Source of the DNA: Eubacteriales bacterium
GTDB lineage: Bacteria > Bacillota > Clostridia > Oscillospirales > CAG-382
Direction of reading: 5' to 3'
DNA length: 64,000 nt
NCBI GenBank assembly: GCA_045589515.1
Contig: JAZNPH010000025.1
Location: 4,034 to 68,033, forward strand
The notes under the pieces are model-generated. The model was not told the origin of the DNA and did no database searches. It saw only the letters and a list, made by a program, of their open reading frames with translations. Position 1 is the first letter of the stretch. Each line of letters begins with the position of its first letter. This document shows, piece after piece, positions 5,249 to 52,118 of the stretch. The position numbers and the translations under genes were made by a program.

Positions 5249-5251
5249 TGA

Positions 5252-35354: not shown

Positions 35355-35365
35355 AGGCAGACCGC

Positions 35366-36229: not shown

Positions 36230-36331
36230 ATTTGCCTCCTTTTTAAGCGCCGCAAGGTTCGCGGCTCTTTTTGTCACGGTCAGTATACCATATCGTTAGG
36301 AAAAACACAAGTGGTCAGGCTTATTTTTTAC

Positions 36332-36365
36332 AAAAAAAGAAGGCAACTTTTGCGTTGCCTTCTTT
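36332..36365 (-). terminator. Rho-independent terminator closing the 24-kb surface-protein operon
   Basis: There is a 12-bp stem, AAAGAAGGCAAC (36336-36347) / GTTGCCTTCTTT (36354-36365). It is followed on the minus strand by a run of seven T. It lies 8 nt after the stop of the dockerin gene. Confidence 0.75.
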
Positions 36366-36372
36366 GAAAAAA

Positions 36373-38556
36373 TCAATTTTCGGGAGTCCACTTGCCAAGC
36401 AAGTAGGATTTCAGCTTGAAATAGTCGGTTTTATTGACCTTGCCGTTGCCGTCGATATCGCTTCTGGCAAACATGCCGTCGTCAAAGGCGATATCTTTGC
36501 CCAGCAGGTAGGACTTCAGCTTGAAGTAGTCTGTCTTGGCGGCCTTTCCATCGCCGTCCACGTCACCAAAGACAAACGCGGGCTCTTCCTGCTCGAAATA
36601 GTAGCAAGCGAACATCCAAGCGTCATCCAGATTACCGCCGACCCAGCCGTCTTCACCATACCAATCCTGATACTTACCAACGCTTTGGAAAATGATCATC
36701 AGGTCCTCAGTCAGGGGATAATATGCGGTCTCATCGGTACATGCGAGGTATTCTCCGAATGCTTCGTTGTAGTTAATCTTCTGCACAACGGTATCGCCAT
36801 CATAGATTACATCCTTCAACTGCCCGTATTCCATTGCACCGGCTAGGCTCATGAGAGGATCGCTGAGGCAAGCATACAGGAGAGGACCGTTGGCGTTGCC
36901 AAGGTGATAATAACCATCCACACCGAGAACGGCCACGTCACAGACACCGTCAAAGGTATCTACATACAGAAGGGCATCTTCATCCCCCTCAAAGCTGAAG
37001 GGTACAGGGGTGAACTTGTTTTCATAGATGGTCCACGGAATCTCAACAATGACGATTTCTTCCTTTTCGATGGTGAGGAAGATTCCGGGCTCATCGGAAA
37101 TGGCCGCTACCAGAATGGACTGTCCAACATCCTTGCATTCCCATTCGAAGGTGCTTTCCGTAACGGTTTCTGCAGAGGGCTCGATGGTGACCCACATACC
37201 GTTGTAGCTGACCAGAGCAACATAGCCGTTGGCGGCAGTAAAGGTATACTTGCCGACCTCAGTGGGCTCAAAGTAATACACGGTATACATATACTCGGGA
37301 TCAAGCTCGCACTCGTTATCCCCAACGGAAAGAACGACATCGGACCAGAAGTAGCCTTCCGTTTTTCCATCGCCGGTGGGAGGGGTTACGGGCTCATCGG
37401 GAACGTCTACGGGAGGATCTACGGGATCTTCGCCTTCACCGGGGGTAAAGGTTAAGCTCCAATGCAAGGTTCCGGCAGGGTTATTCCACATATCTGCAGG
37501 GTCGTAGGTGGCAACCATCACGGTCACAACGTCGCCTGCGGATACGGAATGGCTCTCGGTGGAGACAACAGTCTCGTCATCACTCCAATGGGTATCGCCG
37601 TAGACAAAAGTCTCGTCGGCACGCAAAATATTCAAGTTATACTGCCAGCTTTCATCCAGCATGGCAACGGATACGGTCCCGTTTGCGGCGGCGGTCCAAG
37701 TGTAGTGATACCCCTGGTTACCCGCTTCCAGCACAGCGGTATACTCCCCTGCGGTAATTTCCTGAGGGAAATTCATAGAGCCAATGGCATCAAAGGATGC
37801 ATTGACGGAGACAGAGCCGGCAGGATTGCTCCACATATTGTTGGGATCGTAGGTGCTGACAAACAGAACGACCTCGTCGCCTGCAGACACTTTTACAGAC
37901 TCGTAGTTAACGGGAATCTCGTCGTCGCTCCAATGGATATCGCCATAGATGCCTGCGGTCACGTTGTTTAAAAAGTAAAGCCAGCCAACGGGCATATACT
38001 CTGCGTCAAACGCGCTGAGGTTGGCGGTGAAGTAACCGTCGGAAGTAGCGGTCCAGGAATAGTAGTAGCCCTCGTTGCCCGCATCAAGGTCCTTCGTTAA
38101 AAATGCGCCGAGATTGCCGAACCAATCCTTTTCCAAAAGGATCTCTTCGGGATTATCCATGGTTCCTGCACCTGCGAGAGCGCCTGCGGCCAGCTTCAGA
38201 TACACCACCACGTCGGTCTCGCCGCTGTTATAGACGGAGAAGACGTCGGAGAAGGCGTTCATGGTAAACTCTGCGGTGCCGTCTGCGCCGGGATACACGC
38301 TCTGTCTGCCATACTGCAGGAAATAGCCGTCGCTTGTTGCGTGGCCGACGGTGACGGTGGAGTTGTCACATTGATCCACCTTCACGTAAGCCTCTGTTCC
38401 GGGAGCAACGGTAATGGGCAGAGGGGTCATGCTGTCTGCATACAACAGGTAGGGATTCTCGTAAGTGCCGAGATCAGCATTCTCGGCGAGAACTGCCATA
38501 GGCGTGACAGTCAGAATCACTGCCATAAGCAGGCTAAGAAGTTTCTTCATAGTCAT
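36373..38556 (-). CDS. Secreted multi-domain protein with C-terminal type I dockerin
   Basis: It has a type I signal peptide (TPMAVLA-EN) and several beta-sandwich repeats, including an internal duplication. It carries the shared DGYYH...YPLTEDL...CYY module. The C-terminus has two EF-hand-like dockerin segments, DVDGDGKAAKTDYFKLKSYLLG and DIDGNGKVNKTDYFKLKSYLLG. Confidence 0.7.
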   Translation of the reverse strand: MTMKKLLSLLMAVILTVTPMAVLAENADLGTYENPYLLYADSMTPLPITVAPGTEAYVKVDQCDNSTVTVGHATSDGYFLQYGRQSVYPGADGTAEFTMNAFSDVFSVYNSGETDVVVYLKLAAGALAGAGTMDNPEEILLEKDWFGNLGAFLTKDLDAGNEGYYYSWTATSDGYFTANLSAFDAEYMPVGWLYFLNNVTAGIYGDIHWSDDEIPVNYESVKVSAGDEVVLFVSTYDPNNMWSNPAGSVSVNASFDAIGSMNFPQEITAGEYTAVLEAGNQGYHYTWTAAANGTVSVAMLDESWQYNLNILRADETFVYGDTHWSDDETVVSTESHSVSAGDVVTVMVATYDPADMWNNPAGTLHWSLTFTPGEGEDPVDPPVDVPDEPVTPPTGDGKTEGYFWSDVVLSVGDNECELDPEYMYTVYYFEPTEVGKYTFTAANGYVALVSYNGMWVTIEPSAETVTESTFEWECKDVGQSILVAAISDEPGIFLTIEKEEIVIVEIPWTIYENKFTPVPFSFEGDEDALLYVDTFDGVCDVAVLGVDGYYHLGNANGPLLYACLSDPLMSLAGAMEYGQLKDVIYDGDTVVQKINYNEAFGEYLACTDETAYYPLTEDLMIIFQSVGKYQDWYGEDGWVGGNLDDAWMFACYYFEQEEPAFVFGDVDGDGKAAKTDYFKLKSYLLGKDIAFDDGMFARSDIDGNGKVNKTDYFKLKSYLLGKWTPEN
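36391..36576 (-). other. Dockerin module (two 22-residue Ca-binding repeats)
   Basis: This covers aa 661-722 of the 727-aa protein. The D.D.DG.....D loop followed by an amphipathic helix occurs twice. The duplication is also visible at the DNA level (...CAGCTTGAAATAGTC... / ...CAGCTTGAAGTAGTC...). Confidence 0.7.
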
Positions 38557-38586
38557 TTGGGTTGCCTCCTGTTATTTGATTTGTTT

Positions 38587-39639
38587 TTAAGAGAGATATT
38601 CTGCGCACCAGGTAATCACGGTAGCGGGATACTTCCCTCTTCTGTTGGGAACTGCGCCCATATTGATGGAAAGATCATCCCCAGCTTCCACGGCAACATC
38701 AAAGTAGATCCTGCCCTGTTCGTCAACGGTATCCACGCCGTCGGAGCTAACCTGTACGTAACTGCGGTTATTAGTGACTCTGATAAAGCTGTCCACAGTC
38801 GCGGAAAGATAGAATCGAACGGTGCCATCCTTTACCGCTGTATGGCGATAGAAATAACCGATGTCATTTCCAGCTTCCAGAGAAACTACCGTATCTTCGG
38901 CCATAGACTCCTTAAGCTCGGCATTGCCCATAGAACCCAAGGGGATGGTGAACTTCAAGACAAAAGACTGCTCAGAGGTGCCGTTATTGCCTATTTCAAA
39001 GCCGATAGGAGCGCTGGCAAGCGCTCTTTCCACACGAAGAGTAAGAACTCCGTCAACGGGAGTATAGGTTACGCCCTCGTAGATCACGTAAACGTCGGCA
39101 GACTCGATGGTAAGATCCATGCCACCAACACGGTAAATACCAAAGAAGGCAGTGGTGCCGGGTTGGATCTTCACGGTGGTCACGGGGGTGTTCTCGTGGG
39201 GAATATACAGGTAGGGATCTTCCTCGGTGCCGGAGCCATCGGGAATAATCTCTTCGGGTTCAGAAGGATCTTCGGAGGGCTCATCCGGCTCAGAAGGCTC
39301 TACGGGCTCTTCGGAAGACTCATCGGGCTCGGAGGGCGCCTCGGAAGGCTCTTCAGAAGGTTCTTCGGAGGGTTCTTCGGAAGGCTCCACAGAAGGCTCC
39401 TCGGAGGGTTCTTCGGAAGACTCCACAGAGGGCTCCTCGGAGGGTTCTTCGGAAGATTCTTCAACAGAAACGGCCTCGGAAGAGATAGCTTCCGAAGAGG
39501 CATCGGCACTTTCTTCCTTGGATTCAACACCCGTGCTCACCTCGGGAGGAAGCTCCTCGGAGCAACCGACCAAAGCGAGAGAAAGCAGGCAAGTCAAGAG
39601 CAAGGAAGCGGCAAGACAAAGTAACAGTTTCTTATTCAT
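38587..39639 (-). CDS. Lipoprotein with long acidic (P-S-E-E)n linker and a beta-sandwich domain
   Basis: It has the signal/lipobox LSLALVG-CSEE. Residues 59-130 are almost pure SEEP/SEPD repeats. The C-terminal domain begins GTEEDPYLYIP, resembling the GTYENPYLLY / GTMDNPEEIL domain starts of the dockerin protein. Confidence 0.6.
   Translation of the reverse strand: MNKKLLLCLAASLLLTCLLSLALVGCSEELPPEVSTGVESKEESADASSEAISSEAVSVEESSEEPSEEPSVESSEEPSEEPSVEPSEEPSEEPSEEPSEAPSEPDESSEEPVEPSEPDEPSEDPSEPEEIIPDGSGTEEDPYLYIPHENTPVTTVKIQPGTTAFFGIYRVGGMDLTIESADVYVIYEGVTYTPVDGVLTLRVERALASAPIGFEIGNNGTSEQSFVLKFTIPLGSMGNAELKESMAEDTVVSLEAGNDIGYFYRHTAVKDGTVRFYLSATVDSFIRVTNNRSYVQVSSDGVDTVDEQGRIYFDVAVEAGDDLSINMGAVPNRRGKYPATVITWCAEYLS
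39250..39465 (-). repeat. In-frame tandem repeat encoding acidic Pro-Ser-Glu low-complexity linker
   Basis: GAAGGCTCTTC / GGAGGGTTCTTC-type 12-nt units reiterate. The translation is EEPSEEPSVESSEEPSEEPSVEPSEEPSEEPSEEPSEAPSEPDESSEEPVEPSEPDEPSEDPSEPEE. Confidence 0.7.
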
Positions 39640-39641
39640 AA

Positions 39642-40082
39642 TCAGTTACCCTTGGTCAAGGTCAGGGTGTATTCGGTAGCGCCGTATTCCAGATGGATCT
39701 CGGCCTCGCCCTCGTAGGTATACCCCTCAGGGAGCGTCATCACAGACAGTTTATAACCGTCGGTGATCTCAACGTTGAAAACAGCGACGCCGTCCTCGCC
39801 GCTCATAGAGGGCATGCAGGAATCCTTGCAGATCTGCACCATAGCGCCGGAGACGGGATTGCCGTCCTGATCCACTACGGTGACAGAGAACTTGGGAGCT
39901 TCGGGCACAGAGGTCTCGGAAGACTCGTTCTCCACAGCCTCGGAAGAGGTGTTTGCTACGCTCTCCGCAGAAGATTCTGCGGGAGCAGAGGTCTCGTTCT
40001 GCTCGCCGCAAGCCACCAAGCAAAGAAGCATGGTCAGACCCAAGACAAGAGCAAGAAGTCTTTTGGTGAGTTTCATATTCAT
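39642..40082 (-). CDS. Small lipoprotein consisting of an acidic linker plus one carboxypeptidase-regulatory-like beta-sandwich domain
   Basis: It has the lipobox CLVA-CGEQ and a Ser/Glu-rich linker. This is followed by FSVTVVDQDGNPVSGAMVQICKDS....GEDGVAVFNV..GYKLSV..LPEGY, the pattern of CarboxypepD_reg/prealbumin-like folds. Confidence 0.55.
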   Translation of the reverse strand: MNMKLTKRLLALVLGLTMLLCLVACGEQNETSAPAESSAESVANTSSEAVENESSETSVPEAPKFSVTVVDQDGNPVSGAMVQICKDSCMPSMSGEDGVAVFNVEITDGYKLSVMTLPEGYTYEGEAEIHLEYGATEYTLTLTKGN

Positions 40083-40092
40083 TTTCTCCTTT

Positions 40093-40977
40093 TCAGGGAT
40101 TCATTTCTTCGATGCTTTGGTAGGTTCTTTGCACATACTCGTCGGAAGTAACGTAAGCAAACAGACTGGAGAAGGTTTCCGCATCCGTCACAGCGCCGAT
40201 ATGCACCAGACAGATCATTCCATAACGGTCAATGACAACCGTTGTAGGATAAGCTCGGAGATTCATAGCAGTTTGCCAATACAACTCCTCGGAAGCGACG
40301 GGAAATGTCAATCCCATTTGCTCCGCATATGAGGAAACTGTGGCGTCGGTGCCATCGTAAGGATTGATGGCAATGACCTCCAGACTGTCTTTATACTGCA
40401 AATATGCTTGTTCCAGGTAAGGAAATTCCATACGGCAAGGGCCGCAACCGATGAACCAGAAGTTCAGCACGACAGCTTTCCTCTCTTTCAGAAGATCTGC
40501 GATGGAAAGCTGTGTGCCATCGGTACAGGTAACGCTGAGATTGGGAACAATGCTCCCGACACGTAGGGAAAGCGTGGTAAGGTCTTCCACTTCATAAGGA
40601 ACTGCTTGAACGGTGATCGTGGTTTCCGTTCCGGTAACGGGGTAATACGATTCACCGCAATATCCGGGATCTTCCGGATACAGAACCGCAACGTAAGAAT
40701 CGGATAACGGCGCACGGAAAGTGAAATTCCCTTCCCTGTCCGTCATAGCGGCATACACAAGATCGGTGAGGGAAGAATCCTCGTAAACCTTGACCAAAAC
40801 GTCGCCAAACTTCATTCCGCCTTCGGTTTGGAAGGTGAGCGTATAGTCTGCGAAATCGGATTCCTTGGAGGGCGCGGTGCTTTCTTCGAGAGCAGGATCA
40901 CACCCGACAAAGGAAAGGATCGCGATCATCAGCAGCCAAGAAAGTGCTGTGCGTAAATATTTCTTCTTATTCCACAT
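40093..40977 (-). CDS. TlpA/ResA-like thiol-disulfide oxidoreductase lipoprotein (CarboxypepD_reg-like domain plus thioredoxin fold, CGPC)
   Basis: It has the lipobox SFVG-CDP and a beta-sandwich (YTLTFQTEGGMKFGDVLVKVYED...DREGNFTF). The thioredoxin fold reads KAVVLNFWFIGCGPCRMEFPYLEQAY...YPTTVVIDRYG. I verified the CGPC codons at 40435-40446. Confidence 0.8.
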   Translation of the reverse strand: MWNKKKYLRTALSWLLMIAILSFVGCDPALEESTAPSKESDFADYTLTFQTEGGMKFGDVLVKVYEDSSLTDLVYAAMTDREGNFTFRAPLSDSYVAVLYPEDPGYCGESYYPVTGTETTITVQAVPYEVEDLTTLSLRVGSIVPNLSVTCTDGTQLSIADLLKERKAVVLNFWFIGCGPCRMEFPYLEQAYLQYKDSLEVIAINPYDGTDATVSSYAEQMGLTFPVASEELYWQTAMNLRAYPTTVVIDRYGMICLVHIGAVTDAETFSSLFAYVTSDEYVQRTYQSIEEMNP

Positions 40978-42226
40978 AGCAACACATCAACAGCCACGCG
41001 ATATCATGGTTGATACCGGGCTCGGGGTTGCCGTCCATATCCACGAAAAGGTAGGCTCGGCTTTCGGGATCCCACCAGCCCTGGTAATCACCATGCTGCT
41101 GTACAATATACTTCAGATCCTCGGTCAGGGGGTATACCCCCATGGCTTCGTCGGCACAAGCAATGTATTCCGCGAGACACTGGGAATAGGATTCCTTCTT
41201 TGTAAATTTCCCTTCCTCATCGTAGAAATACTTGGTAACGCCGGTGTGTTCCAGGATGGTCTGATAGGAATCCATATACTCGCTGTCCTCGGAAAGGCGC
41301 ATAAGCACCAGGGGACCGTCTGCGGAATCCAGATGGTAGAAGCCGTCGGTTTCATTGTACACCAAGGTGTATTCCTTAGTAAAATCAAATTCCTTTAAGG
41401 TCGCTCCTGCGGGAAGTTGATAAGCTTCGGGAGCTTTCACGGCCTCGTAAACTGTCCAGGGCTCATCCTCGATGGTTTTGATGGGATCGCCGATACGGCG
41501 GATACCAAAGATGCAAGAGGTCTCGATATCTGCATCCACACCAAGCACCAGCACGTTGGTGCCACCTTCGCCGCTTCCGATCATGGAAGCTTTGATGGAT
41601 ACGGTGAACACGTTATCGGTGACGGTTGCAACACTGTTTTCCATCACGTAATGCGGAGAACCGTAGTAGCCGACGGTTGCTTTGGTCTCTCCGATCAGAG
41701 AGAACTCAAAGTTACCGGCAACGGTGGGAGTAAACAGGAAGTAGTTCCGAACACCGGGGGTGAGCTCTACGTAGGTGGTTCCGATCCCTAAAGGATACGT
41801 CTCGATATCAGAAGAACTTACGGTAATCGCTTGAGACTCCGCAGTGATCCTGCCGCAGAGAGTCACTTCCGCAGAAGTGACCTCGGCAGTTACAGTGGTT
41901 TTTTCGTAGTAATGGTTCTCTTCTCCGTCGGAGAACGCAAGAGAGATTTCGTATTCCCCGGCAGTAAGGCTTTTGCTTGCAACGCCGTTTGCATCGCAAG
42001 GCTGCATGGCAACACGCTCACCGTTCTGCAAGAACTGCACGGCCACACCTGCTGTGCAGGGATCGCCGAACGCATCCTTAACGGTGACGGTGTAGGTAAG
42101 CTCCCCGGCAGGGGCAGAAGATTCCGGCTGAGAAGTGCCCTCCCCAGAGGAAGAGCAGGATCCCAGAAGCATTGCTACCGCCAGCAAGGCGGCTAAAATG
42201 TAGGTTTTCAAGTTCTTATTGATCAT
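40967..42226 (-). CDS. Modular lipoprotein (CarboxypepD_reg-like domain, beta-sandwich, shared C-terminal DGFYH...YPLTEDL...CCY module)
   Basis: It has the lipobox LLGS-CSSS and YTVTVKDAFGDPCTAGVAVQFLQNGERV...DANGVAS. Its C-terminal 165 aa are paralogous to the dockerin protein and to the 927-aa protein. Confidence 0.6.
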   Translation of the reverse strand: MINKNLKTYILAALLAVAMLLGSCSSSGEGTSQPESSAPAGELTYTVTVKDAFGDPCTAGVAVQFLQNGERVAMQPCDANGVASKSLTAGEYEISLAFSDGEENHYYEKTTVTAEVTSAEVTLCGRITAESQAITVSSSDIETYPLGIGTTYVELTPGVRNYFLFTPTVAGNFEFSLIGETKATVGYYGSPHYVMENSVATVTDNVFTVSIKASMIGSGEGGTNVLVLGVDADIETSCIFGIRRIGDPIKTIEDEPWTVYEAVKAPEAYQLPAGATLKEFDFTKEYTLVYNETDGFYHLDSADGPLVLMRLSEDSEYMDSYQTILEHTGVTKYFYDEEGKFTKKESYSQCLAEYIACADEAMGVYPLTEDLKYIVQQHGDYQGWWDPESRAYLFVDMDGNPEPGINHDIAWLLMCCYVE

Positions 42227-42241
42227 GGCATTTACCCGTCA

Positions 42242-45025
42242 TCAATCATTGGAGCCCAGATAATCGTAGTAGTAGCAGAGCTTCAACCAGGAATTCTCAA
42301 CACCTGCGAAGGTGTATTTATCCATGAGAAGCTGCAAAATCTCAGCAAGCCGCTGATCTACTACCACGCATCCGTTACGCTCGGTATTTTCGGAATCGTC
42401 AATCTTATCAAGATAGGAACGCACTTCCTCGGTAAGATCCCCGCCCTTGCCGTGGTATCTGCCGGCAAAGACATCCTCCAACTGGTAGTTGATTGCGTTT
42501 TGATCGTACTCATCTCCCCATTTTTCTCTGAGATAAGCATCGGTCTTTTCGATATCGTTATCGTTTTGCTTCAGGTAGGAAAGAATCTCGGCATCGGTCT
42601 CGGATTTACTGAAATCGAAGCCGCCCATCTCGATCATCTCAGTGATAGAGTGGCTGAATACGCTGGTCATAGAGGTGAAATCCGCATAGATCAGACTTCC
42701 GTCCGCAGAATCGTACCAATAACCGTCTTTCAGCTCGGGCTTAATGCCGCCGGTAATGATATCGTACATGGTGTCGCCGGTGGCGTCGCCGTCGTAGGTG
42801 AAGTAACCGGGAGCGGCGGCACGGAAGAGCCAAAGCTCTTCTGCGATATACTCAACGTCGTAGTAAATAACGCCGGTAGCGTAAACATCCCAGAAAGCCA
42901 TATTGATATAGTAGGGCTTGCCGGCTTCCATATAGTAGACCATGGAAACGTTAACGGTATCTGTATACATACGTTCGTCATGCTCGTAGGTATAAATAAT
43001 ATCGCCGTTGCTGTCAAAGATCCAGGAGTCGATGCCGTCTTTGTACTCGCTTCTGGAGGTAAAACGGTATACCCCGGATCTTTCGGGAATAAATTCCGCA
43101 AACATACCTCTGGGAATGATCGCTCTGTCGTAGTAGAAATAGTTGGTCTCGACGCCCTTGCCCAGGGTTGCGTCCAATGCGCTTTCGGGGCAAAGACCGA
43201 TGATGGGATCCTGAAGCTGAGTAGCGGTGGGACCGTATGCCACGAAGTACTTACAGATCTTCAACCATTCGTTTTCGGTGCCGTCGAAGCCTGCCACCTC
43301 GGCAACCTGCTTGAGCATTTCAGCAAGCTCTTTGTTTACGGTGCAAATGCCGTTCAAGGAAGCGTTGGAAGCATAGGAGAAGTACTTCACCATGTTTTTC
43401 CCTTCCTTGTCGTAGAGGCTGACGCCGTCCTTATCTGCCAGACCCTCGTAGACGATCTGGTAAACGGACATTTCCTCGGAGAAGGGAGTGTAGCCCATAA
43501 GGTCTGCCAGAAGAAGGGGGCCGTCCGCCTTGCCTACATGGTAGTAGCCGTCCTTTTCGTTGAAGACGATATCCACATAAGAATAGGTCTCGCCGTCCTC
43601 AGAAGTGCCGGCAGGGCGGGGCAAGTAAGTATCCACGTCGATCTCGGAAGCATCTACAGCGCGGAAATTGTTGATATAAACGGTGTCGTCCCCCTCGGAG
43701 GTGTCGCTATCCTTGACGAAGCAAAGAGCGATCTCGTAGGTGCCATCTTCTTCCGCAACGCAGGGGTAGCAAGACTGCCAGGTCTCGGTCTCTCCTACGC
43801 CGGAGATCTGGAACACGTCCTCGTCGTTGACGATGACGTACAAAATATCGCAAAGGCGCTCGGAGGAGATGAGGTAGTCGAAGCCAACCGCCTGTCCCTT
43901 CTTCAGAGTGACGTCGGCGTAGAGGATGGCGTAGGAGGAATCGATGCCGGTGTTGGAGGCGTAGAGCGCCTTCTTACCGTTCTTTTCCGTAGCGATGAAG
44001 GGCCAGATGTACTGGGCGTTTTCATCCTCGGTCTCGGGACGATAGGTAACTTGGATATCGCCCTTGTTGATGAGAGCAGAAATGTTCTCGGAGGAATCCA
44101 TGGTGTAGTTGGGAACCACCTGAGTCACCAGGTCGCCGATGCCGCCTACACAGACCTTCTGCTTATAAACGTCCGCAAGGAAGTGATCGAAGGCGGACAG
44201 GAAGGGACGCTTGCTGGTAATGGCACCTGCCTCCACTACGCTGATCAGCCCATAACGGTCAATGAACACAGAGGTGGGGTAGCCGGTAACGGAAAAGGTG
44301 TTGGCCCAGGAGGAAGGACAAGCGGCCATGGGAAAATCCAGACCGTGCTCAGCCTTGAAATTCTTAACGGCAGCTTCACCGTCCAGGGGATCCAACGCGA
44401 TGATCTCGATCTGATCCTTGTACTCAGCGTACAACTCGTTCATCAGAGGGAACTCTTCAAGACACCAGGTACAAGTGGTGTACCAGAAGTTCAGGATCAC
44501 CAGCTTTTTGGTCTCCAGAACCTTGGAAAGGGTGAGTTCTTCCCCATCGGAGGTGGTAACGGTGAAATCATACATGATATCGCCCATCCCCAAGGATGCG
44601 GAGGAAAGCTCCTCGTCGGTAACCAAAGAGGAGGTTAGGACGATGCTTGCGGAGGTGCCGGAGAAGCCGTAGTAGCTGTCAACGGAGTAACCCTTTGCAA
44701 CGCCCGTGAGGACAATGGCGTAGTCCTTGCTCTGGGGCAGGGTAAAGGATACGTCGCCGTTTACATCGGTCTTGGCAAAGTCCACCATGTCGGCAAGGGA
44801 ACCGTCTGCGTAGATATATACGTCGGTTTCGGACATTGCCATTCCGCCGGCCGTCTCCACGTGAACGGTATAAGTCGCGGAGCCGCCTGCAGGCGCGCTC
44901 TCCTCGGAGCTTGTGTCGCTGGTGGTTCCGCTGTCATCCGAGCAGGATGCCAACAGAGGGAGACAGATCGCCAAAAGCAGAAGTAAGGCGATCATACCAT
45001 GCTTTCTGTAAGTATTTCTTTTCAT
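42242..45025 (-). CDS. Large modular lipoprotein with TlpA-like thioredoxin fold (CTWC)
   Basis: It has the lipobox LLAS-CSDD and a CarboxypepD_reg-like domain (YTVHVETAGGMAMSETDVYIYADG...DVNGDVSF). The thioredoxin fold reads KLVILNFWYTTCTWCLEEFPLMNELY...GYPTSVFIDRYG, and I verified the CTWC codons at 44462-44473. A jelly-roll-like region and two copies of the shared module follow. Confidence 0.75.
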   Translation of the reverse strand: MKRNTYRKHGMIALLLLLAICLPLLASCSDDSGTTSDTSSEESAPAGGSATYTVHVETAGGMAMSETDVYIYADGSLADMVDFAKTDVNGDVSFTLPQSKDYAIVLTGVAKGYSVDSYYGFSGTSASIVLTSSLVTDEELSSASLGMGDIMYDFTVTTSDGEELTLSKVLETKKLVILNFWYTTCTWCLEEFPLMNELYAEYKDQIEIIALDPLDGEAAVKNFKAEHGLDFPMAACPSSWANTFSVTGYPTSVFIDRYGLISVVEAGAITSKRPFLSAFDHFLADVYKQKVCVGGIGDLVTQVVPNYTMDSSENISALINKGDIQVTYRPETEDENAQYIWPFIATEKNGKKALYASNTGIDSSYAILYADVTLKKGQAVGFDYLISSERLCDILYVIVNDEDVFQISGVGETETWQSCYPCVAEEDGTYEIALCFVKDSDTSEGDDTVYINNFRAVDASEIDVDTYLPRPAGTSEDGETYSYVDIVFNEKDGYYHVGKADGPLLLADLMGYTPFSEEMSVYQIVYEGLADKDGVSLYDKEGKNMVKYFSYASNASLNGICTVNKELAEMLKQVAEVAGFDGTENEWLKICKYFVAYGPTATQLQDPIIGLCPESALDATLGKGVETNYFYYDRAIIPRGMFAEFIPERSGVYRFTSRSEYKDGIDSWIFDSNGDIIYTYEHDERMYTDTVNVSMVYYMEAGKPYYINMAFWDVYATGVIYYDVEYIAEELWLFRAAAPGYFTYDGDATGDTMYDIITGGIKPELKDGYWYDSADGSLIYADFTSMTSVFSHSITEMIEMGGFDFSKSETDAEILSYLKQNDNDIEKTDAYLREKWGDEYDQNAINYQLEDVFAGRYHGKGGDLTEEVRSYLDKIDDSENTERNGCVVVDQRLAEILQLLMDKYTFAGVENSWLKLCYYYDYLGSND

Positions 45026-45058: not shown

Positions 45059-45304
45059 TCAAACGAGCCAAAAGATCAAAGCCACGATGAGAAAGGCGAC
45101 TGCAAGGAAGCCCACGGCAACAAGGGTGGGTAAAAGCATCATACGTACTGCGCTCCAATAGGTGCGCCAGATGTCGCCGACAGAGGACGTGGTACCGCTC
45201 CCCCAGCGGCTTTTCCCCGCGGAAACGCCTGACATATCCGCAATGGTCCTGCCGTCGTCGATATAATGCACTTTTTCCTTTTTGGACTTGTCTTTCTTCA
45301 TCAT
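45059..45304 (-). CDS. Small tail-anchored membrane protein, unknown function
   Basis: The 81-aa protein has a Lys-rich N-terminus (MMKKDKSKKEK) and a C-terminal TM helix (LLPTLVAVGFLAVAFLIVALIFWLV). It is packed 13 nt after the ABC ATPase gene and 33 nt before the 927-aa lipoprotein gene. Confidence 0.45.
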   Translation of the reverse strand: MMKKDKSKKEKVHYIDDGRTIADMSGVSAGKSRWGSGTTSSVGDIWRTYWSAVRMMLLPTLVAVGFLAVAFLIVALIFWLV

Positions 45305-45317
45305 GAACGCTTTTTCC

Positions 45318-46319
45318 TTACTCGTTCAGCAAGTGGCAGGCGGCGCAATGGCCGTTGCCGTAATCTTTGTACTCCGGCGTTACCTCTTTGCAAATATCCT
45401 TTGCATGGGGGCAACGGGTGTGGAAGCGGCAACCCTTGGGCGGGTTAGCGGGAGACGGGATGTCACCACTTAGGATGATACGGTTCATTTTCACGTCGGG
45501 ATCGGGATAAGGAATGGCAGAGAACAAGGCTTGGGTGTAGGGGTGCAAGGGGTTTGCGAAGATATCCTCCTTGGTACCGAATTCCACCATGGAGCCAAGA
45601 TACATGACGCCGATCTTATCGGATATGAACTTGACCACGGAAAGGTCGTGGGAATTGAACACGTAGGTGAGATCCATCTCCTGCTGGAGACGCTTCAACA
45701 GATTGATGATCTGCGCCTGAATAGAAACATCCAGAGCAGATACGGGCTCGTCACAGATGACAAGCTTGGGGTTGACGGAAAGGGCGCGGGCGATGCAAAT
45801 ACGCTGGCGCTGGCCGCCGGAGAATTCGTGGGGGTAGCGCTCGTAATAGTAGGAACGCAGACCGCACTTATCCATCAGATCCAGAACGTACTCCTTTACC
45901 TGATCCTTGGGAACAATATTATGTACCTCCACAGGCTCGGAAAGGATGCCGCCCACGGTGCTTCTGGGTGGCAGAGAGGAGTAGGGGTCCTGGAAAATGA
46001 TCTGCATCTTCTTGCGGATCTCCCGCATTTGGGAAGAAGTATAGTTGGTAATATCCTGCCCTTCAAAGAAGATCTGACCGGAGGTGGGCTGGTGGAGCTT
46101 AAGAATGGCTCTGCCCAAGGTGGTCTTGCCGCAGCCGGATTCGCCAACGATGCCTAAGGTCTCCCCTGCTTTCAGAGAGAAGGACACATCGTCCACGGCG
46201 ATGAGCTCGCGAGTGACCTTACCGGTGATGGTCTTTTTGAGAGGGAAGCACTTACGCAGGTGATGTACCTCCAAAAGGCTGTCACTTGCGGGGGCATTGA
46301 TCTTCTGTTCTTCAGCCAT
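45318..46319 (-). CDS. Oligopeptide/dipeptide ABC transporter ATP-binding protein (OppF/DppF-type)
   Basis: It has Walker A GESGCGKTT, the signature LSGGQRQRICIARAL and Walker B LVICDEPVSALD. The Opp-type C-terminal extension has Cys motifs (CRFHTRCPHAKDIC...CAACH). Confidence 0.9.
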   Translation of the reverse strand: MAEEQKINAPASDSLLEVHHLRKCFPLKKTITGKVTRELIAVDDVSFSLKAGETLGIVGESGCGKTTLGRAILKLHQPTSGQIFFEGQDITNYTSSQMREIRKKMQIIFQDPYSSLPPRSTVGGILSEPVEVHNIVPKDQVKEYVLDLMDKCGLRSYYYERYPHEFSGGQRQRICIARALSVNPKLVICDEPVSALDVSIQAQIINLLKRLQQEMDLTYVFNSHDLSVVKFISDKIGVMYLGSMVEFGTKEDIFANPLHPYTQALFSAIPYPDPDVKMNRIILSGDIPSPANPPKGCRFHTRCPHAKDICKEVTPEYKDYGNGHCAACHLLNE

Positions 46320-47460
46320 TGTTCTGTTCCTCCCCGTATAAGTGACATGCTACGTAATGGGTGGGGCTGACCCGGATCATCCCCGGATACTCCCCTGCGC
46401 ACTTTTTGGTGCAGGAGGAGCATCTCTCACGGAAGTAGCAATAGTTGGGCATATTGATGGGGTTGGGCACGTTACCGGGGATGTTGAACAGCGTGTCGCT
46501 GTCGGAATCCAGGGTGGGCTTGGATTTCTGCAAGCCGATGGTATAGGGGTGCATGGGATTATGGAAGATCTCTTGCACAGTGCCCTGCTCGATGACTCTG
46601 CCTGCGTACATGACCACCACGTAATCCGCCATCTCAGCAATAATGCCAAGATCGTGGGTGATGAGCATGATGGAGCCGTCGATCTTCTCCTTCAGATCAC
46701 GGAGCAGATCCAAGATCTGCGCCTGAATGGTTACGTCCAGAGCGGTGGTGGGTTCGTCGGCAATGATGAGGCGGGGATCCGCCGCGAGAGCCATGGAGAT
46801 CATCACACGCTGGCGCATACCGCCGGAAAGCTCGTGAGGGAAGGAATTATATACACGCTCGGGGATGGCAATGCCCACCAGATTCAGCATCTCGATGGAA
46901 CGGGCTTTCGCCGTCTCCTTAGTGGCCTTGGGGTTGTTGATGAAGGTGACCTCGTCAAGCTGCTGACCAATGGTGAACACGGGGTTCAAAGAGGTCATGG
47001 GCTCCTGGAAGATCATGGCAATCTGGTTGCCGCGGATCTTGTGAATGTCCCGCATGGGCATTTTTGCCACGTCGTAGACCTTCTCGGTGCCGTCGGCTTC
47101 TTTTGCGTTAAAGCGGATGGAGCCGGAATAGATCTGACCTGCGGGGCCCTGGATCAAACGCATAACGGACATACTGGTCACGGACTTGCCGCAACCGGAC
47201 TCCCCTACCACGCCTACGGTAGCATGCTTGGGAATATTGAAGGAAACGCCGTTGACGGCCTTAACCACGCCCTGCTCGGTGAAAAAATAGGTGTGGAGGT
47301 CATCGATCTCCAGAATGTTCGAATCGTCCTTCATTTCGGTGAGGTATTCCGATTCGGGGGCTTTACGATTCTTGTAGGCCTCCAGCTTTTTGATGATCTT
47401 TTTGTTTTCCTTGGCAATGGCGCGGACTTCCTTGCCCGAAAGGTGATTGGTTTTGCTCAT
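46312..47460 (-). CDS. Oligopeptide/dipeptide ABC transporter ATP-binding protein (OppD/DppD-type)
   Basis: It has Walker [10 protein letters not shown], the signature [15 protein letters not shown] and Walker [12 protein letters not shown]. The C-terminal Cys-rich Opp extension reads [14 protein letters not shown]...VACH. There is a Lys-rich N-terminal extension of about 45 aa. Confidence 0.9.
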
Positions 47461-47463
47461 AGC

Positions 47464-48507
47464 TTATCTCCTCGCTTTCGGGTCAAGGGCATCTCTCAGA
47501 CCGTCTCCCACAAAGTTAAAGCCCAACACGGCAATGACGATGCAAATACCTGCGGGAACCCAGACGTTGAGGTGGTTCTGAAGAATGTCCTGGTTGGTGG
47601 AAATGATGTTGATCATGGTACCCCAAGCAGCGTAGGGCGCCTTGACACCCAGGTTCAGGTAGGACAGCGTTGCCTCGTAGAGAATCATACTACCCAGGCT
47701 CAAGCTCATTTGCACGATGAGCTGGGGCATGACGTTGGGGACCAGGTGCTTAAAGATCTTACGGGGTGCGGAGTAGCCCATGGCTTCTGCCGCCACCATG
47801 TATTCCTGCTCGCGGAGAGACAGGATCTGACCGCGGACAAGTCGCGCGGTGCCGGGCCAGGAAATGAAGGTGAGGTAGATCATCAAGAGGTAAATGCGGT
47901 ATTTCGCATCAATGCCGGAGGCATCCAGGATGGTACTGATGATCAGCAGGATCGGGATACCGGGGAGGCAGATCAACACGTCGCATACACGCATGATGAT
48001 GTTATCCACTACCCCGCCGAAGAAACCTGCGATGCCGCCCATGAATACGCCGAGAATGGTGATCAGAAATACGGCGATAAAGCTGACGATGAGGGAGATT
48101 CTGCCGCCGTACATCAGACGGACGAAGATATCGTAGCCCTCGTTGTCGGTGCCGAGGATGTGCTCTGCGGAGGGAGGTGCCAGGAAGTTGTCCTTAAGAC
48201 TCTTCTCGGTGGTCTGATGGAGGGTGTATTCCACGCCATTGACGGTATAGGTGGTCTCCGCGGTGGCGTATTCCGTCTTACCGCTTTCGTCCAGCTCGAT
48301 CTCACCCCACTGAGTATAGATCAGAGGACCCACGAAACTGAACAGAAACAGCCCTACGATCATAACAAGACCGATGATGCTCAGCTTGGAGCGGAAGAAA
48401 CGACGAACCACCATACGGGTGGGAGACATTAAACGGACGTTTTGATCCAAAGGAGTGTCGGTATCTTCTTTCGCTTCGGGAGTATTGTTTTTCAGTTGTT
48501 CTTCCAC
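47464..48507 (-). CDS. ABC transporter permease (OppC/DppC-type)
   Basis: The BPD-transporter fold has the EAA loop (EQEYMVAAEAMGYSAPRKIFKHLVPN) and an OppC-type N-terminal segment. Confidence 0.9.
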   Translation of the reverse strand: MEEQLKNNTPEAKEDTDTPLDQNVRLMSPTRMVVRRFFRSKLSIIGLVMIVGLFLFSFVGPLIYTQWGEIELDESGKTEYATAETTYTVNGVEYTLHQTTEKSLKDNFLAPPSAEHILGTDNEGYDIFVRLMYGGRISLIVSFIAVFLITILGVFMGGIAGFFGGVVDNIIMRVCDVLICLPGIPILLIISTILDASGIDAKYRIYLLMIYLTFISWPGTARLVRGQILSLREQEYMVAAEAMGYSAPRKIFKHLVPNVMPQLIVQMSLSLGSMILYEATLSYLNLGVKAPYAAWGTMINIISTNQDILQNHLNVWVPAGICIVIAVLGFNFVGDGLRDALDPKARR

Positions 48508-48519
48508 AAAGATACCTCC

Positions 48520-49512
48520 TTACTCCAATTTGACTCTGGGGTCTACGATGCCGTACATCAGGTCGGCCAGCAATACGCCGATGACGCTGAGCAACGCAAG
48601 GAACATATTATAACCCATGATAAAGGGGATATCGCCGCGGTTCATGGCGTCCAGGGCGATATTACCGATACCGGGCAGGTTGAACACCTGCTCCGTGATG
48701 ATGGCACCGGAGAACAGGGAGGGCAGAAGCCCTGCCAGAGAGGTGACCATGGGAATCAGAGTGTTGCGGAAGGCGTGCTTGTTGATAACAACGCTTTCCT
48801 TGAGACCCTTTGCACGAGCGGTACGGATGTAGTCGGAGTTCATAACCTCCAACATATTGGTTCTGGTCATACGCATTCTGGCACCGATGGACAGGATCAC
48901 AATGGTGAGAATGGGGATGAACATATGCCGCGCATAGTCCAACAGGAGGGCGAGCCCTGCCTGGGACACGGTAGCGTCCAGCAAGCCCGAAGCCGGGAAC
49001 CATCCCAGCTTCAGGGCAAGGAAATCCTTGAGCACCTGCCCGAAGAAGAAAGAGGGCAGGGAGATGCCGATCATGACCAACACGGTTACCACGTAGTCGC
49101 GGATGCTGTACTGGTGGGTGGCGGCGGTGATCCCAAGGGGGATCGCGATGAGGAATTCGAAAATGGTGGCAATCAAGGCGATGATAAAGGACACGCCCAT
49201 ATGCTCGAAGATAACGTCTGCGACAGGAATGCCGTGGACGAAGCTGGTGCCCAGGTCAAAGGTGGCAAGAGCGCCAAGCCAGCTGAAGTATCCCTTCAGG
49301 ATTCCCATAAAGCTGTTGTCCCCCAGCCCGTACATTTCGTACATGGCGTTCACCGTTTCCTCGCTGACCGTTGCGCCGCCCTGGTTGATGGCGTCGATCT
49401 TGCTCTGGATAAAATCCACGGGCATGAGTCGGATCAGGAAGTAGATGATCATGGAGACGCCCAGCAGAATGAGAACTGCCATGGCAAGTCTTTTAATGAT
49501 GTATTTCAGCAT
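48520..49512 (-). CDS. ABC transporter permease (OppB/DppB-type)
   Basis: It begins MLKYIIKRL......LGVS.I.F.L..L.P.D and has the EAA loop (SDYIRTARAKGLKESVVINKHAFRN). Confidence 0.9.
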   Translation of the reverse strand: MLKYIIKRLAMAVLILLGVSMIIYFLIRLMPVDFIQSKIDAINQGGATVSEETVNAMYEMYGLGDNSFMGILKGYFSWLGALATFDLGTSFVHGIPVADVIFEHMGVSFIIALIATIFEFLIAIPLGITAATHQYSIRDYVVTVLVMIGISLPSFFFGQVLKDFLALKLGWFPASGLLDATVSQAGLALLLDYARHMFIPILTIVILSIGARMRMTRTNMLEVMNSDYIRTARAKGLKESVVINKHAFRNTLIPMVTSLAGLLPSLFSGAIITEQVFNLPGIGNIALDAMNRGDIPFIMGYNMFLALLSVIGVLLADLMYGIVDPRVKLE

Positions 49513-49526
49513 GGGTCACACCCGCT

Positions 49527-52118
49527 TTACTGAGCAAATTCGATTTCCCAAATACGGTCCAAGGGAGAGGAATAGGGATTCATCTCAGCCTCGGTAGGAA
49601 GGCTGGAGGAAGCGATGACGTTGGAGTTGTAGGCGTAGAGAACGCTTCTCTGGTATACGGGGAGCTCGATGGCCAGATCAAGAACGTGCTCCATAGCGCT
49701 CTGGTACAGCTGAGTACGCTTGCCCTGATCGTTGGTCTCACGAGCGGCGTCGATGATCTCGCTGAGCTCGTTGAGGATCTTGGTCTCCTCTGCACTGCCG
49801 CTGGTCTTCAGGTGGTTATAGCCCCAAGCCAGAGTGCTGGTTGCGGTGGAATCCTTGTGGTAAACCTGATACATATCGGGATCAAGAGCGGAGGACCAAG
49901 CTGCTGCCCAAACCTCCAGAGAACCGGTGTTGATCTTGGTAAGAGCCTGGGTATCGCAAACAACCTCTACGTCCCAGCCCATATCGTTCAACAGAGCGGC
50001 GGCATCACGGAACACCTTATAGGTGGGGTGATCCTGCAAGCTGGAGCCTGCGATGGTGAACTTCACGGAAAGCCGAGAGTCGCCTGCACTGACGCCTGCG
50101 GCCTGCATATACTTCTCGATGTTGGCAACAGCGATATCCTGGTTCCAGGTACCCAGAGGAGGATAGTCAAAGTTGTTGTCGTTGGCGGCCGCACCCTTGG
50201 GGTAAGCCCAGCTTACCTTGGACATGGGCCAGAAGATCTGTGCCGCGGTACCTGCACGGTAGTAGTCAAGTGCAAGGGAGGTGTTCATGGCGCACATGAT
50301 GGCCTTACGCAGGTTGATATCGTTAATCTTCGCCGCATTGACACCGATGTAACCGTAGCCCAGCTGATCGGTGGTGAGGGTCACCATGCCCTTGGAAGCC
50401 AGAGCCTCCAGCTTCTCGTAGTTGTTGGTGGTAAGAGAGGGAGAGATGTAGTGAACGTTGCCCTCCTCCAAAGCGGCAATGGCGTTGGCGGAAGAAACGA
50501 TCTGATAACGGATCTTGGGGATCTTGGCATTCTCGATGCCCTCGCCAACGGTGTTAAAGTTTTCGTTGGCCTTGAAGTATACCACGTTGTTGGAATAGAA
50601 CTGGCTTTCGCCGGGGTTATCGTCGTTTGCGGAGTTGGTCACCTTGTAAGCACCTGCACCCATGGGGAGCTTGATGTTACGGGTGGACTGGATCACGTCG
50701 GTCATGAAGTCGAAGCTTGCGAATTCAACGCCGAACTTGTTGTTGGCAATATCCATTGCCACAGAGCTGCCCTCGCCGTAGTAGTGCTGGGGAGCAACGG
50801 TCAGTGCGAAGTTCCAGATGGCCTTGGGGTCAACACCGTCGATGGTGATCTGCAGAACGTCGTACTCGGACGCGTTGGTAACGGTGCCGTCGGCATTGTG
50901 GCCGGAAGCAACGGTGTACTGGGTGCCGTTTACGGTGATGGTGGAGCCTGCCTTATCGGTATGACCCAAAGAAACGATACCGGAGATATGGTCAACTGCA
51001 AGAGAGCCGTCTTCAGAAACGTTCTCGTGGAGGATGACCTCCTTTGCCTTGGCGGTGAACTCGGTGTTAAGCGTGTTGGCGGTTGCCCAATACTGCAGAA
51101 TGATGTTCAGCTCTCTTGCGATCTTATCGTTGTAGATGTAGTCGATAGCAGCTTCCTTGGTGGTGATTGAGGAAGGATATGCAGGGGTCATCTTCTCGAT
51201 GGTGGTACGGTCGATCTTACCGTCTGCACCCTCGGCGTACTCAACTTCCACGTAGCCCTCGGAATACATGAAGCAGAAGATCTCGTTCTTGAATTCCTCG
51301 TAGTTGCTGAAGGGCTTGTCGATGTAGGATTCCTGAGCGGAGAGATAGTCGGTCTCCAGCTCTTCCTTGAACAGCTTCAGAGCGTACTCGTAGTCAGCCA
51401 GCAGGTTCTTGTTGGAGACCTCTGCGGGGTTGGTGGAGATAGCGGTCTTATAGCCGTTGCTCACAGAGTGAGCGTTGATGGCAGCCTTCATTGCCTCGTA
51501 GCCCACCTCTTTGGTGGAGGAAGCTTTTACCTGAGAGTTGAACAGGTTGATCAGCTCATTCAGTCTTGCGGTGGCTCTGGAAGCGGCCTGAGAGGTGATC
51601 TGGCTGTCGCTGTCATCGGAGGAAGAGCCGACGGTCTGGGTTCTGTACTCAGCAAGGCCCAGAATGTCGGTGGAATACAGGGTGTTGGAGCCGGTGTAAA
51701 CAGGATCCAGATATACGTAGTAGTTAAACAGAACGTCCTCCATGGTCAGAGGGTGGCCGTCGGAGAATTTGATGCCGTTCTTAAGGACGAAGGTGTAGGT
51801 CACGGTACCGTCGCTGTTTTCAACGATGTCGTAATCCTTGGTAACCACAGCCTCGTTTTCGCCGTAGGCAACCTGCACTTCCCCGTTGACATACTTGGAT
51901 GCAAGCATGCCGATCTGGGTCATGGCAACGATGGTGCCGTCATTGGCGGAGGTGGAGAAGAACGGATTGAACAGACCGTCAAGCTGTTCCGTCATGATAA
52001 CGAAAGCGTCTACGCCGGCGCCGCCGTTATCGGAACAACCTGTAAATGCAGTCAGGATGCCCATGCAAAGAACAACGCACAGGACCAGTGAAAGGAGTCT
52101 CTTTTTCATTTTGTTCAT
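49527..52118 (-). CDS. ABC transporter substrate-binding lipoprotein, family 5 (peptide/nickel type), unusually large (863 aa)
   Basis: It has the lipobox AFTG-CSDN and family-5 SBP features (...FVLK.GIKFSDG.P.T.EDV.F....). These are spread over about 860 aa with long insertions. The RBS AGGAAGG precedes the start. Confidence 0.8.
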   Translation of the reverse strand: MNKMKKRLLSLVLCVVLCMGILTAFTGCSDNGGAGVDAFVIMTEQLDGLFNPFFSTSANDGTIVAMTQIGMLASKYVNGEVQVAYGENEAVVTKDYDIVENSDGTVTYTFVLKNGIKFSDGHPLTMEDVLFNYYVYLDPVYTGSNTLYSTDILGLAEYRTQTVGSSSDDSDSQITSQAASRATARLNELINLFNSQVKASSTKEVGYEAMKAAINAHSVSNGYKTAISTNPAEVSNKNLLADYEYALKLFKEELETDYLSAQESYIDKPFSNYEEFKNEIFCFMYSEGYVEVEYAEGADGKIDRTTIEKMTPAYPSSITTKEAAIDYIYNDKIARELNIILQYWATANTLNTEFTAKAKEVILHENVSEDGSLAVDHISGIVSLGHTDKAGSTITVNGTQYTVASGHNADGTVTNASEYDVLQITIDGVDPKAIWNFALTVAPQHYYGEGSSVAMDIANNKFGVEFASFDFMTDVIQSTRNIKLPMGAGAYKVTNSANDDNPGESQFYSNNVVYFKANENFNTVGEGIENAKIPKIRYQIVSSANAIAALEEGNVHYISPSLTTNNYEKLEALASKGMVTLTTDQLGYGYIGVNAAKINDINLRKAIMCAMNTSLALDYYRAGTAAQIFWPMSKVSWAYPKGAAANDNNFDYPPLGTWNQDIAVANIEKYMQAAGVSAGDSRLSVKFTIAGSSLQDHPTYKVFRDAAALLNDMGWDVEVVCDTQALTKINTGSLEVWAAAWSSALDPDMYQVYHKDSTATSTLAWGYNHLKTSGSAEETKILNELSEIIDAARETNDQGKRTQLYQSAMEHVLDLAIELPVYQRSVLYAYNSNVIASSSLPTEAEMNPYSSPLDRIWEIEFAQ

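Follow-up and report, generated by a model that had tools for sequence, protein, structure and literature searches.

Three neighbouring genes on the minus strand of a 64,000-nucleotide (nt) stretch of DNA from a Eubacteriales bacterium (GenBank assembly GCA_045589515.1, contig JAZNPH010000025.1, positions 4,034 to 68,033; hereafter the window) encode proteins with four related stretches, which we take, with a probability of about 0.9, to be copies of one autonomous, uncatalogued extracytoplasmic alpha/beta domain of ~130-190 amino acids (aa), here called the module. Copy A (36589..37041; aa 506-656) lies in a 727-aa dockerin protein, copy B (40970..41464; aa 255-419) in a 419-aa lipoprotein, and copies C (43232..43633; aa 465-598) and D (42257..42823; aa 735-923) in a 927-aa TlpA lipoprotein, all on the minus strand. 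A previous sequence-only reading had placed four copies in these three proteins, and its quoted motifs and coordinates all match the translations of the respective genes at 36373..38556, 40967..42226, and 42242..45025 (minus strand). As to function, the module is proposed to be a putative non-catalytic recognition unit that places surface reductases on extracellular protein targets, a role to which we assign a probability of about 0.4.

Homology, predicted fold and search for known relatives

Copies A and B were aligned by BLASTP over 277 columns (E 4e-20; dockerin protein aa 409-655 against 419-aa protein aa 146-419). This alignment exceeds the boundaries previously drawn because the beta-sandwich preceding the module is also common to both proteins; the boundaries themselves were right for copies A and B, and copy B folds alone in prediction (aa 247-419). 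The 419-aa protein also matched copy C of the 927-aa protein (BLASTP E 3e-8). Orthologue alignments of 114 and 117 sequences were built, cut into regions and compared by hhalign. As a result, B matched C over the entire module (probability 97%, E 7.7e-11) and C matched D over the C-terminal 81 columns (probability 95.8%, E 7.4e-9), with a second, collinear weak match in the DGYYH segment (E 0.01). The direct comparison of B with D was not significant, and D is therefore tied to the family via C. Among hidden Markov models (HMMs) built from single types, the B model found A (2e-16) and C (7e-7), the C model found D (2e-5), and the D model found C (2e-7); searched against all six frames of the complete 2.4-Mb assembly, these models matched nothing beyond the three carrier proteins.

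The joint alignment of 13 fragments was coherent, with invariant G, Y, L, and W columns and nearly invariant D, D, Y, G, C, and Y columns. The signature of the module is D-G-x-Y-H, G-P, Y, (Y-P-)L-x-x-D/E-L, and W-x3-C-x-Y. The Trp/Cys/Tyr ending that the sequence-only reading had described is indeed common to all four copies, but its spacing is W-x3-C-x-Y throughout rather than Trp-x2-3-Cys-(Tyr/Lys)-Tyr. Copy C is the shortest and represents the core version, whereas copies A and B have a loop of ~20-25 aa before the last helix that is missing in C and D; in copy D, ~47 aa are inserted and the His of DGxYH is missing. The non-significant B-D comparison could be taken as a sign of chance resemblance or a low-complexity artefact. 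However, all other pairings are significant with independent profiles (A-B, B-C, and C-D by BLASTP, hhalign, and single-type HMMs), the same columns are conserved in every type of a coherent alignment, and the family comprises more than 1,300 clusters, so that chance deserves next to no weight.

The fold was predicted with AlphaFold2. The model of the full-length 419-aa protein, made from the 114-sequence alignment, had a predicted local distance difference test score (pLDDT) of 91.2 and comprised an immunoglobulin (Ig)-like domain (42-122), a second beta-sandwich (124-246), and an alpha/beta domain (about 250-419). Module B alone (aa 247-419) was modelled with a pLDDT of 92.9 and a predicted template-modelling score of 0.87 as an alpha/beta fold of nine short strands and four helices, in which the D-G of the signature lies in a predicted hairpin turn. 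The high confidence obtained for the isolated module suggests an autonomous domain. When the full-length model was compared with Protein Data Bank (PDB) structures by Foldseek, only the two N-terminal beta-sandwiches were matched (collagen-binding domains (CBDs) of ColG, collagenase PPC, DUF3823, and the SusC N-terminal extension). The sandwich directly upstream of copy B (41489..41857, minus strand; aa 124-246) resembled the ColG CBDs and a collagenase PPC domain with a Foldseek probability of 1.00 and a template-modelling score (TM) of 0.5-0.58 by target, and had no sequence match to Pfam PPC (PF04151). The module itself had no fold match among PDB structures (best E 0.45, TM <=0.19).

Known relatives were sought in Pfam-A (2025 copy), NCBIfam 20.0, PDB sequences (profile search), and PDB structures (Foldseek). 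The earlier suggestion that the module is not a named domain agreed with the results: no consistent Pfam-A or NCBIfam match and no PDB match in sequence or fold was found. The module region of the whole carrier proteins gave nothing in Pfam-A or NCBIfam at E <=1. With 13 module fragments scanned singly at E up to 10, ten Pfam families appeared, each in one or two members (best E 0.0038); these weak matches (Trans_reg_C 0.0038, FBP_C 0.067, and others) were dropped because each occurred in just 1-2 of the 13 fragments. The best hit of the profile search against PDB sequences, 2jpu (E 0.032), was dropped as not significant and as having no support from Foldseek.

Well-known classes of domain were also compared with the module. 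It has neither a CxxC motif nor a match to the thioredoxin fold, and the true thioredoxin domains of the carrier proteins lie outside it. Cysteine peptidases with a His-Cys dyad or triad (clan CD, sortases, L,D-transpeptidases) do not fit, as both Cys and His are replaceable in the module and no fold match was found. Nor is it a cohesin, being alpha/beta and not a nine-stranded beta-sandwich, and the PF00963 matches sit on another contig; Pfam families of carbohydrate-binding modules (CBMs) gave no match. Taken together, sequence searches and the predicted model point to a module that is new both as a domain family and as a fold, within a system that is a relative of surface TlpA/ResA-type systems.

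Conservation, cysteines and paralogous types

A search with a 165-position profile showed that the module forms a large family, with 1,355 clusters at E <=1e-3, 885 at E <=1e-10, and 187 at E <=1e-30 (counts are representatives of clusters at 50% identity). Members are 149 to 1,816 aa long, have one to three module copies each, and are named in their sources just 'hypothetical protein' or after the thioredoxin part. In 48 diverse representatives, the Pfam domains found beside the module were Redoxin/AhpC-TSA (14), Big_1 (13), CarboxypepD_reg (11), and SpaA, MG4, and Dockerin_1 (7 each); catalytic domains other than the thioredoxin type were not found in this set. Among 184 aligned instances, a beta-sandwich of the cassette type directly precedes the module in 136, and the module ends <=12 residues from the protein C-terminus in half.

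Across the 184 instances, conservation was highest at G60 and W156 (99% each), followed by G51, Y53, and L128 (98% each), D50 and Y109 (96% each), H54 (94%), Y162 (93%), C160 (91%), and P123 (82%). Such conservation of D50, H54, C160, and Y53/Y109/Y162 is what would be expected if the Asp and His of DGxYH, the C-terminal Cys, and the Tyr residues formed the triad or metal centre of a small enzyme. However, the D-G occupies a predicted beta-hairpin turn, a typical structural position, and the His is absent from copy D of the window and of locus L002, although these are among the most conserved copies; in all, it is replaced by Y or R in 11 of the 184 instances. In addition, half of the instances have the Cys 3-10 residues before the protein end, L, V, or I can take its place, and Foldseek against the PDB gave no hydrolase with a similar fold. 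A small enzyme or metal site is thus quite improbable.

The cysteines of the module occupy HMM columns 105, 112, 121/122, 160, and 161, and are represented in the 419-aa protein by C350, C357, C415, and C416. In 17 of the 184 instances another residue stands in place of C160, always L, V, or I, and the position is therefore considered buried. Cys 105 nearly always occurs together with Cys 161 (54/58; Fisher p 9e-22). A possible partner of C160 occurs at 112 or at 121/122, never at both (p 5e-14), and in the window it is found at 112 in copies A and B and at 121/122 in copies C and D. No partner was found at positions 110, 112, 113, 121, or 122 in 49 of the 167 instances that have C160. In copy C, Cys561 and Cys591 are invariant in 117 orthologues.

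These patterns bear on the earlier view that the conserved Cys belongs to the thiol-redox theme of the locus. On that view, the Cys pair would be a redox client or relay, serving as substrate of the neighbouring TlpA-like reductases or forming mixed disulfides with targets, and the module would be redox-switched. The close genomic and physical coupling to TlpA-like domains is consistent with this, as are the 91% conservation of C160, the partner Cys that types B, C, and D each hold invariant or nearly so, and a strictly anaerobic host lineage in which a dedicated conduit beside the locus would lead reductant outward. However, the purely aliphatic replacement of C160 indicates burial, the partner positions vary by type and more than a quarter of the C160-bearing instances have none at the five positions above, the module contains no CxxC motif, and Cys is not unusually rare in the lipoproteins of this genome. 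The redox view is accordingly weakened and appears unlikely. The Cys residues look like optional structural staples rather than catalytic or redox-active thiols, and such disulfide staples would tie the last strand of the module to helix 2 or to strand 118-120. An argument from cysteine exclusion, by which any conserved Cys in an exported Firmicute protein would be remarkable, was set aside; the published statement concerns aerobic Firmicutes (PMC2823432), and the Cys content of lipoprotein-like open reading frames (ORFs) of this genome (1.2% vs 1.9% overall) is only mildly depleted, so that a conserved Cys is not remarkable in itself.

The history of the types was analysed with a maximum-likelihood tree of 89 module instances. 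Types B (100/99), C (95/89), and D (99/99) each formed one clade, C and D were sister clades (support 99/98), and the copies fused to redoxins were sister to B (98/95). Type A evolves fast, and its position in the tree was not resolved; copy A shares 67% identity with its nearest orthologue vs 91-96% for B, C, and D. The carrier of module A is likewise much faster-evolving, which fits an exposed, variable tip protein. The tree suggests that B, C, and D are ancient paralogues, with duplications older than the spread of the cassette described below. Each type has been kept separately, which argues for non-redundant roles.

Carrier proteins, operon and distribution

The 927-aa lipoprotein consists of a lipobox, an Ig-like domain, a TlpA/ResA-like thioredoxin domain (CTWC; aa 148-272), a domain at 300-465, module C, a sandwich, and module D. 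Its thioredoxin domain matched Pfam AhpC-TSA (2.6e-14) and Redoxin (8e-11), and the NCBIfam ResA subfamily model matched at 3.7e-24 with a score under its cut-off (85.6 vs 170). More than 2,080 homologues with ~70% identity were found. The 300-465 domain had no Pfam match. Between the thioredoxin domain and module C, this domain contains a C-Y-P-C motif (43760-43771, minus strand; aa 419-422), and C419, Y420, P421, and C435 are invariant in 117 orthologues; this could be a further redox motif, separate from the thioredoxin fold. The 419-aa lipoprotein comprises an Ig-like domain, the PPC-like sandwich, and module B, and its more than 1,375 homologues are all unnamed or 'hypothetical'. The 727-aa secreted protein has repeated sandwiches, module A, and a type I dockerin (aa 664-720; Pfam Dockerin_1 2e-09).

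Three further lipoproteins without the module complete a six-gene cassette on the minus strand. A 294-aa TlpA-like lipoprotein with CGPC is encoded at 40093..40977 (Pfam Redoxin 1.9e-15), and lipoproteins of 146 aa and 350 aa at 38587..40082, with an Ig-like domain and an acidic PSEE linker plus sandwiches. The 927-aa and 294-aa proteins of the cassette belong to the TlpA/ResA family of thiol-disulfide oxidoreductases by AhpC-TSA/Redoxin matches above Pfam cut-offs, CTWC or CGPC, and a lipobox signal peptide, this membership being at the family level and not that of a ResA equivalog, given the NCBIfam score. Upstream in the same orientation, an Opp-type ATP-binding cassette importer was identified by Pfam (45059..52118), with an 863-aa SBP_bac_5 binding protein, two permeases, two ATPases, and an 81-aa tail-anchored ORF (45059-45304, minus strand) between the ATPase gene and the cassette. 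The gene order on the minus strand is binding protein, permeases, ATPases, 81-aa ORF, 927-aa, 419-aa, 294-aa, 146-aa, 350-aa, and 727-aa dockerin protein, with gaps of 0-33 nt between all genes. A terminator-like hairpin (36336..36365, minus strand; 12 pairs, then TTTTTGT) lies 8 nt past the stop of the dockerin-protein gene. The short gaps and the predicted terminator make one operon plausible, and the hairpin likely marks the end of an operon of ~15.7 kb that begins at the binding-protein gene.

The dockerin of the 727-aa protein was considered in relation to cohesins elsewhere in the genome. Cohesin-bearing ORFs were located on another contig of the same genome (G000 contig C45, about 4856-5530 and 35213-37463), and 26 dockerin matches were counted genome-wide. 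Consequently, the dockerin probably plugs into an ordinary scaffoldin and sets module A on a cellulosome-like assembly. The possibility that the module is itself the receptor of the dockerin was ruled out on the same grounds.

Related loci were collected by a search with the B-type alignment. The B-type protein was present in 159 species-representative genomes, and 80 loci were kept, with 10 kb inspected around each and many contigs cut. All 80 loci came from metagenome-assembled genomes with sources including goat, sheep, buffalo, deer, and yak hindgut, and they were labelled Oscillospiraceae, Acutalibacteraceae, Faecousia, Fimenecus, Ruminococcus, and the like. Within 10 kb, genes for the 927-aa type and for the second redoxin were each found in 79 loci, for the 146-aa protein in 76, for the 350-aa protein in 74, and for the N-terminus of the dockerin protein in 50. 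Types B, C, and D occurred in essentially every locus, in agreement with the earlier idea that the module is the family-defining unit of the locus. At least 80 species of uncultured hindgut Clostridia have kept the cassette with these three types. The earlier question whether the module always accompanies Opp, S8, or thioredoxin genes had a mixed answer: a redoxin gene was present within 10 kb in 79 of the 80 loci and 14 of 48 members are redoxin fusions, but Opp (23/80) and S8 protease genes (18/80), although strongly linked to the module in the genus of the window, are not universal. The binding protein, the permeases, and the 81-aa ORF were adjacent in 23 loci each and the two ATPases in 24; as the counts of the ORF and Opp agree, the ORF appears to be part of the transporter and not of the cassette. 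The CxxC partner of a NapH-like iron-sulfur protein was found in 19 loci.

The number of module copies per locus was nearly constant at 3-5. The layout of the window was found in 34 loci; in 15 the fourth copy lay on the second redoxin instead, and in three both a redoxin-fused and a dockerin-protein copy were present. The counterpart of the 294-aa protein itself bears a module in 18 of the 80 loci. A requirement for four copies was ruled out by at least five uncut loci that carry just B, C, and D. The fourth copy, either A or one on the second redoxin, is thus optional, whereas B, C, and D are near-universal in the cassette.

This arrangement raises the alternative that the module serves assembly, the paralogous types binding each other or the Ig-like and sandwich domains and building the six lipoproteins into a fixed surface complex in the manner of cohesin and dockerin. 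Several non-redundant paralogues, each separately conserved in different proteins of one operon, would suit such a role, as would the nearly constant copy number, the shift of the fourth copy from the dockerin protein to the second redoxin, and the fact that thioredoxin domains are the sole catalytic partners in the 48 members surveyed. However, another genus has solitary proteins with one copy and no cassette, one two-copy protein stands beside a leucine-rich repeat (LRR) protein with no redoxin, and the fast evolution of type A is unexpected for a fixed interface. We consider assembly unlikely, although a slightly better candidate than a redox-switched module.

The solitary proteins in question are P2-like proteins of about 442-454 aa (Ig-like domain plus module), which were found in three of the four module-bearing genomes of genus g25 of the same family. 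In the one locus examined (L091, 9781-11109, minus strand; G266:C2), the neighbours of the P2-like protein are helix-turn-helix regulators and an acyltransferase, and a redoxin is absent from the 10 kb around it, which suggests that the module has a function of its own. The two-copy protein (1,316 aa) lies in locus L088 (1575-13951), directly after a 2,722-aa LRR_5 (BspA-type) protein and with no redoxin nearby. The LRR type of this neighbour is the same as on the S8 protease of the island to which the cassette belongs, which hints at a link between module and LRR. Members with other architectures (1,441, 1,816, 815, and 381 aa) were again found beside an S8-PA-LRR protease, a Fer4_5-redoxin fusion and its partner, and SBP_bac_5 or Opp genes.

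In the genus of the window, the module was detected in 8 of 25 genomes. The set of genomes with orthologues of the 863-aa binding protein (77-84% identity) is identical to these eight, and the CxxC partner of the NapH-like protein occurs in the eight plus one with a stop-interrupted copy; module, binding protein, and CxxC partner lie on the same contigs. The chance of the exact 8/25 coincidence is ~1 in 1.08 million if genomes are independent, which they are not fully. Since the cassette, Opp, and the NapH-like feeder are present or absent together in the genus, the island is gained or lost as a unit. The interrupted partner gene (G007:C142:3400-4230) has three TAA stops and is all that this genome keeps of the island, apparently left behind when the island was lost. 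In an even sample of the order, the module was rare and patchy (10/401 genomes, 5/178 genera). On these sequence comparisons, the module is almost restricted to a single conserved cassette of six surface-lipoprotein genes in uncultured Clostridia of the hindgut.

Proposed role and comparison with known systems

If the module is a recognition unit, it would, together with the preceding beta-sandwich, hold an extracellular target beside the TlpA-like reductases of the cassette. The target would most likely be a protein substrate, because the flanking sandwich is similar to domains found in secreted proteases, namely PPC and collagen-binding domains. Reducing power may be passed outward to the TlpA lipoproteins by a NapH-like iron-sulfur protein with a fused thioredoxin domain, and these lipoproteins would open disulfides in the captured proteins. 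The S8-PA-LRR protease could then cut the captured, reduced proteins, and the Opp system with its oversized binding protein could import the resulting peptides. In a stronger form of this proposal, gut Clostridia would possess an extracellular 'reduce-and-digest' machine whose target-recognition unit would be the module, itself then a new protein fold; the captured proteins might be disulfide-rich proteins from diet or host, such as protease inhibitors, storage proteins, mucin domains, or keratin. We regard this stronger form as doubtful, and less probable than a recognition role as such.

Several points weigh against the proposed recognition role. Opp genes and S8 genes are each found within 10 kb of only about one locus in four, and the reduce-cleave-import chain therefore rests on a recurring neighbourhood and not on obligate linkage. 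The invariant His and Asp together with the 91%-conserved Cys could form a metal or active site, and the module may have a distant known relative, the searches having covered Pfam, NCBIfam, and the PDB.

Among characterised systems, the closest surface thioredoxin lipoproteins are Etrx1/Etrx2 of Streptococcus pneumoniae (PMC3914529), whose likeness to the module carriers is confined to the thioredoxin part. Like these and ResA/StoA/TlpA, the module carriers have a TlpA/ResA-like thioredoxin fold with CxxC, are anchored by lipid and face outward, and electrons are presumably fed to them across the membrane. However, the known proteins are single thioredoxin domains served by membrane proteins of the CcdA/DsbD type, and they act on a defined client, namely MsrAB2, apocytochrome c, or a spore-cortex enzyme. 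In the 927-aa carrier, the thioredoxin domain is instead fused to ~650 aa of extra domains, including two module copies. The operon of the window also encodes five further surface proteins, the neighbouring feeder is a NapH-like Fer4_5 protein, and the module has no counterpart in those systems. NapH-like Fer4_5 membrane modules are known to mediate extracytosolic electron transfer and to serve flavinylated or respiratory reductases (PMC8238504). A Fer4_5 membrane protein likewise recurs beside the cassette as a plausible source of reducing power, but here it has a fused thioredoxin domain and accompanies TlpA lipoproteins that bear the module.

The sandwich preceding the module is similar in fold to the PPC domains and CBDs of clostridial collagenases (ColG s3a/s3b, PDB 5iku and 1nqd; PDB 5sv5), which tether secreted proteases to insoluble protein substrates. 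The resemblance is limited to this neighbouring sandwich, and the alpha/beta module has no match. Cellulosomal proteins carry non-catalytic accessory modules (CBMs, X-modules) next to dockerins. Similarly, the present module is mobile, putatively non-catalytic, variable in copy number and position, and sometimes located right before a type I dockerin; however, no sequence or fold relation to CBMs, X-modules, or cohesins was detected, and its partners are thioredoxin domains and not glycoside hydrolases.

In the degradation of keratin and other disulfide-rich proteins, subtilisin-type proteases cooperate with disulfide reduction (PMC6906142). The logic proposed for the island, in which disulfides would be reduced, proteins cut with an S8 protease, and peptides taken up, is similar by functional analogy only. 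The reductant in the known cases is sulfite, a soluble reductase, or the cell surface, and neither a dedicated surface lipoprotein cassette nor a recognition module is known from that process.

In summary, a family of more than 1,000 clusters with a confidently predicted fold and no relative in Pfam, NCBIfam, or the PDB is a candidate for a new family entry and for structure determination. The module marks a conserved surface system, so far unstudied, of uncultured Clostridia from the hindgut of ruminants and poultry, in which outward-facing thiol-disulfide reductases are linked with a giant protease and a peptide importer. If the module is indeed the substrate-recognition part of this system, it would explain how these anaerobes gain access to disulfide-locked proteins that escape host digestion, and would have a bearing on hindgut protein fermentation and feed efficiency.

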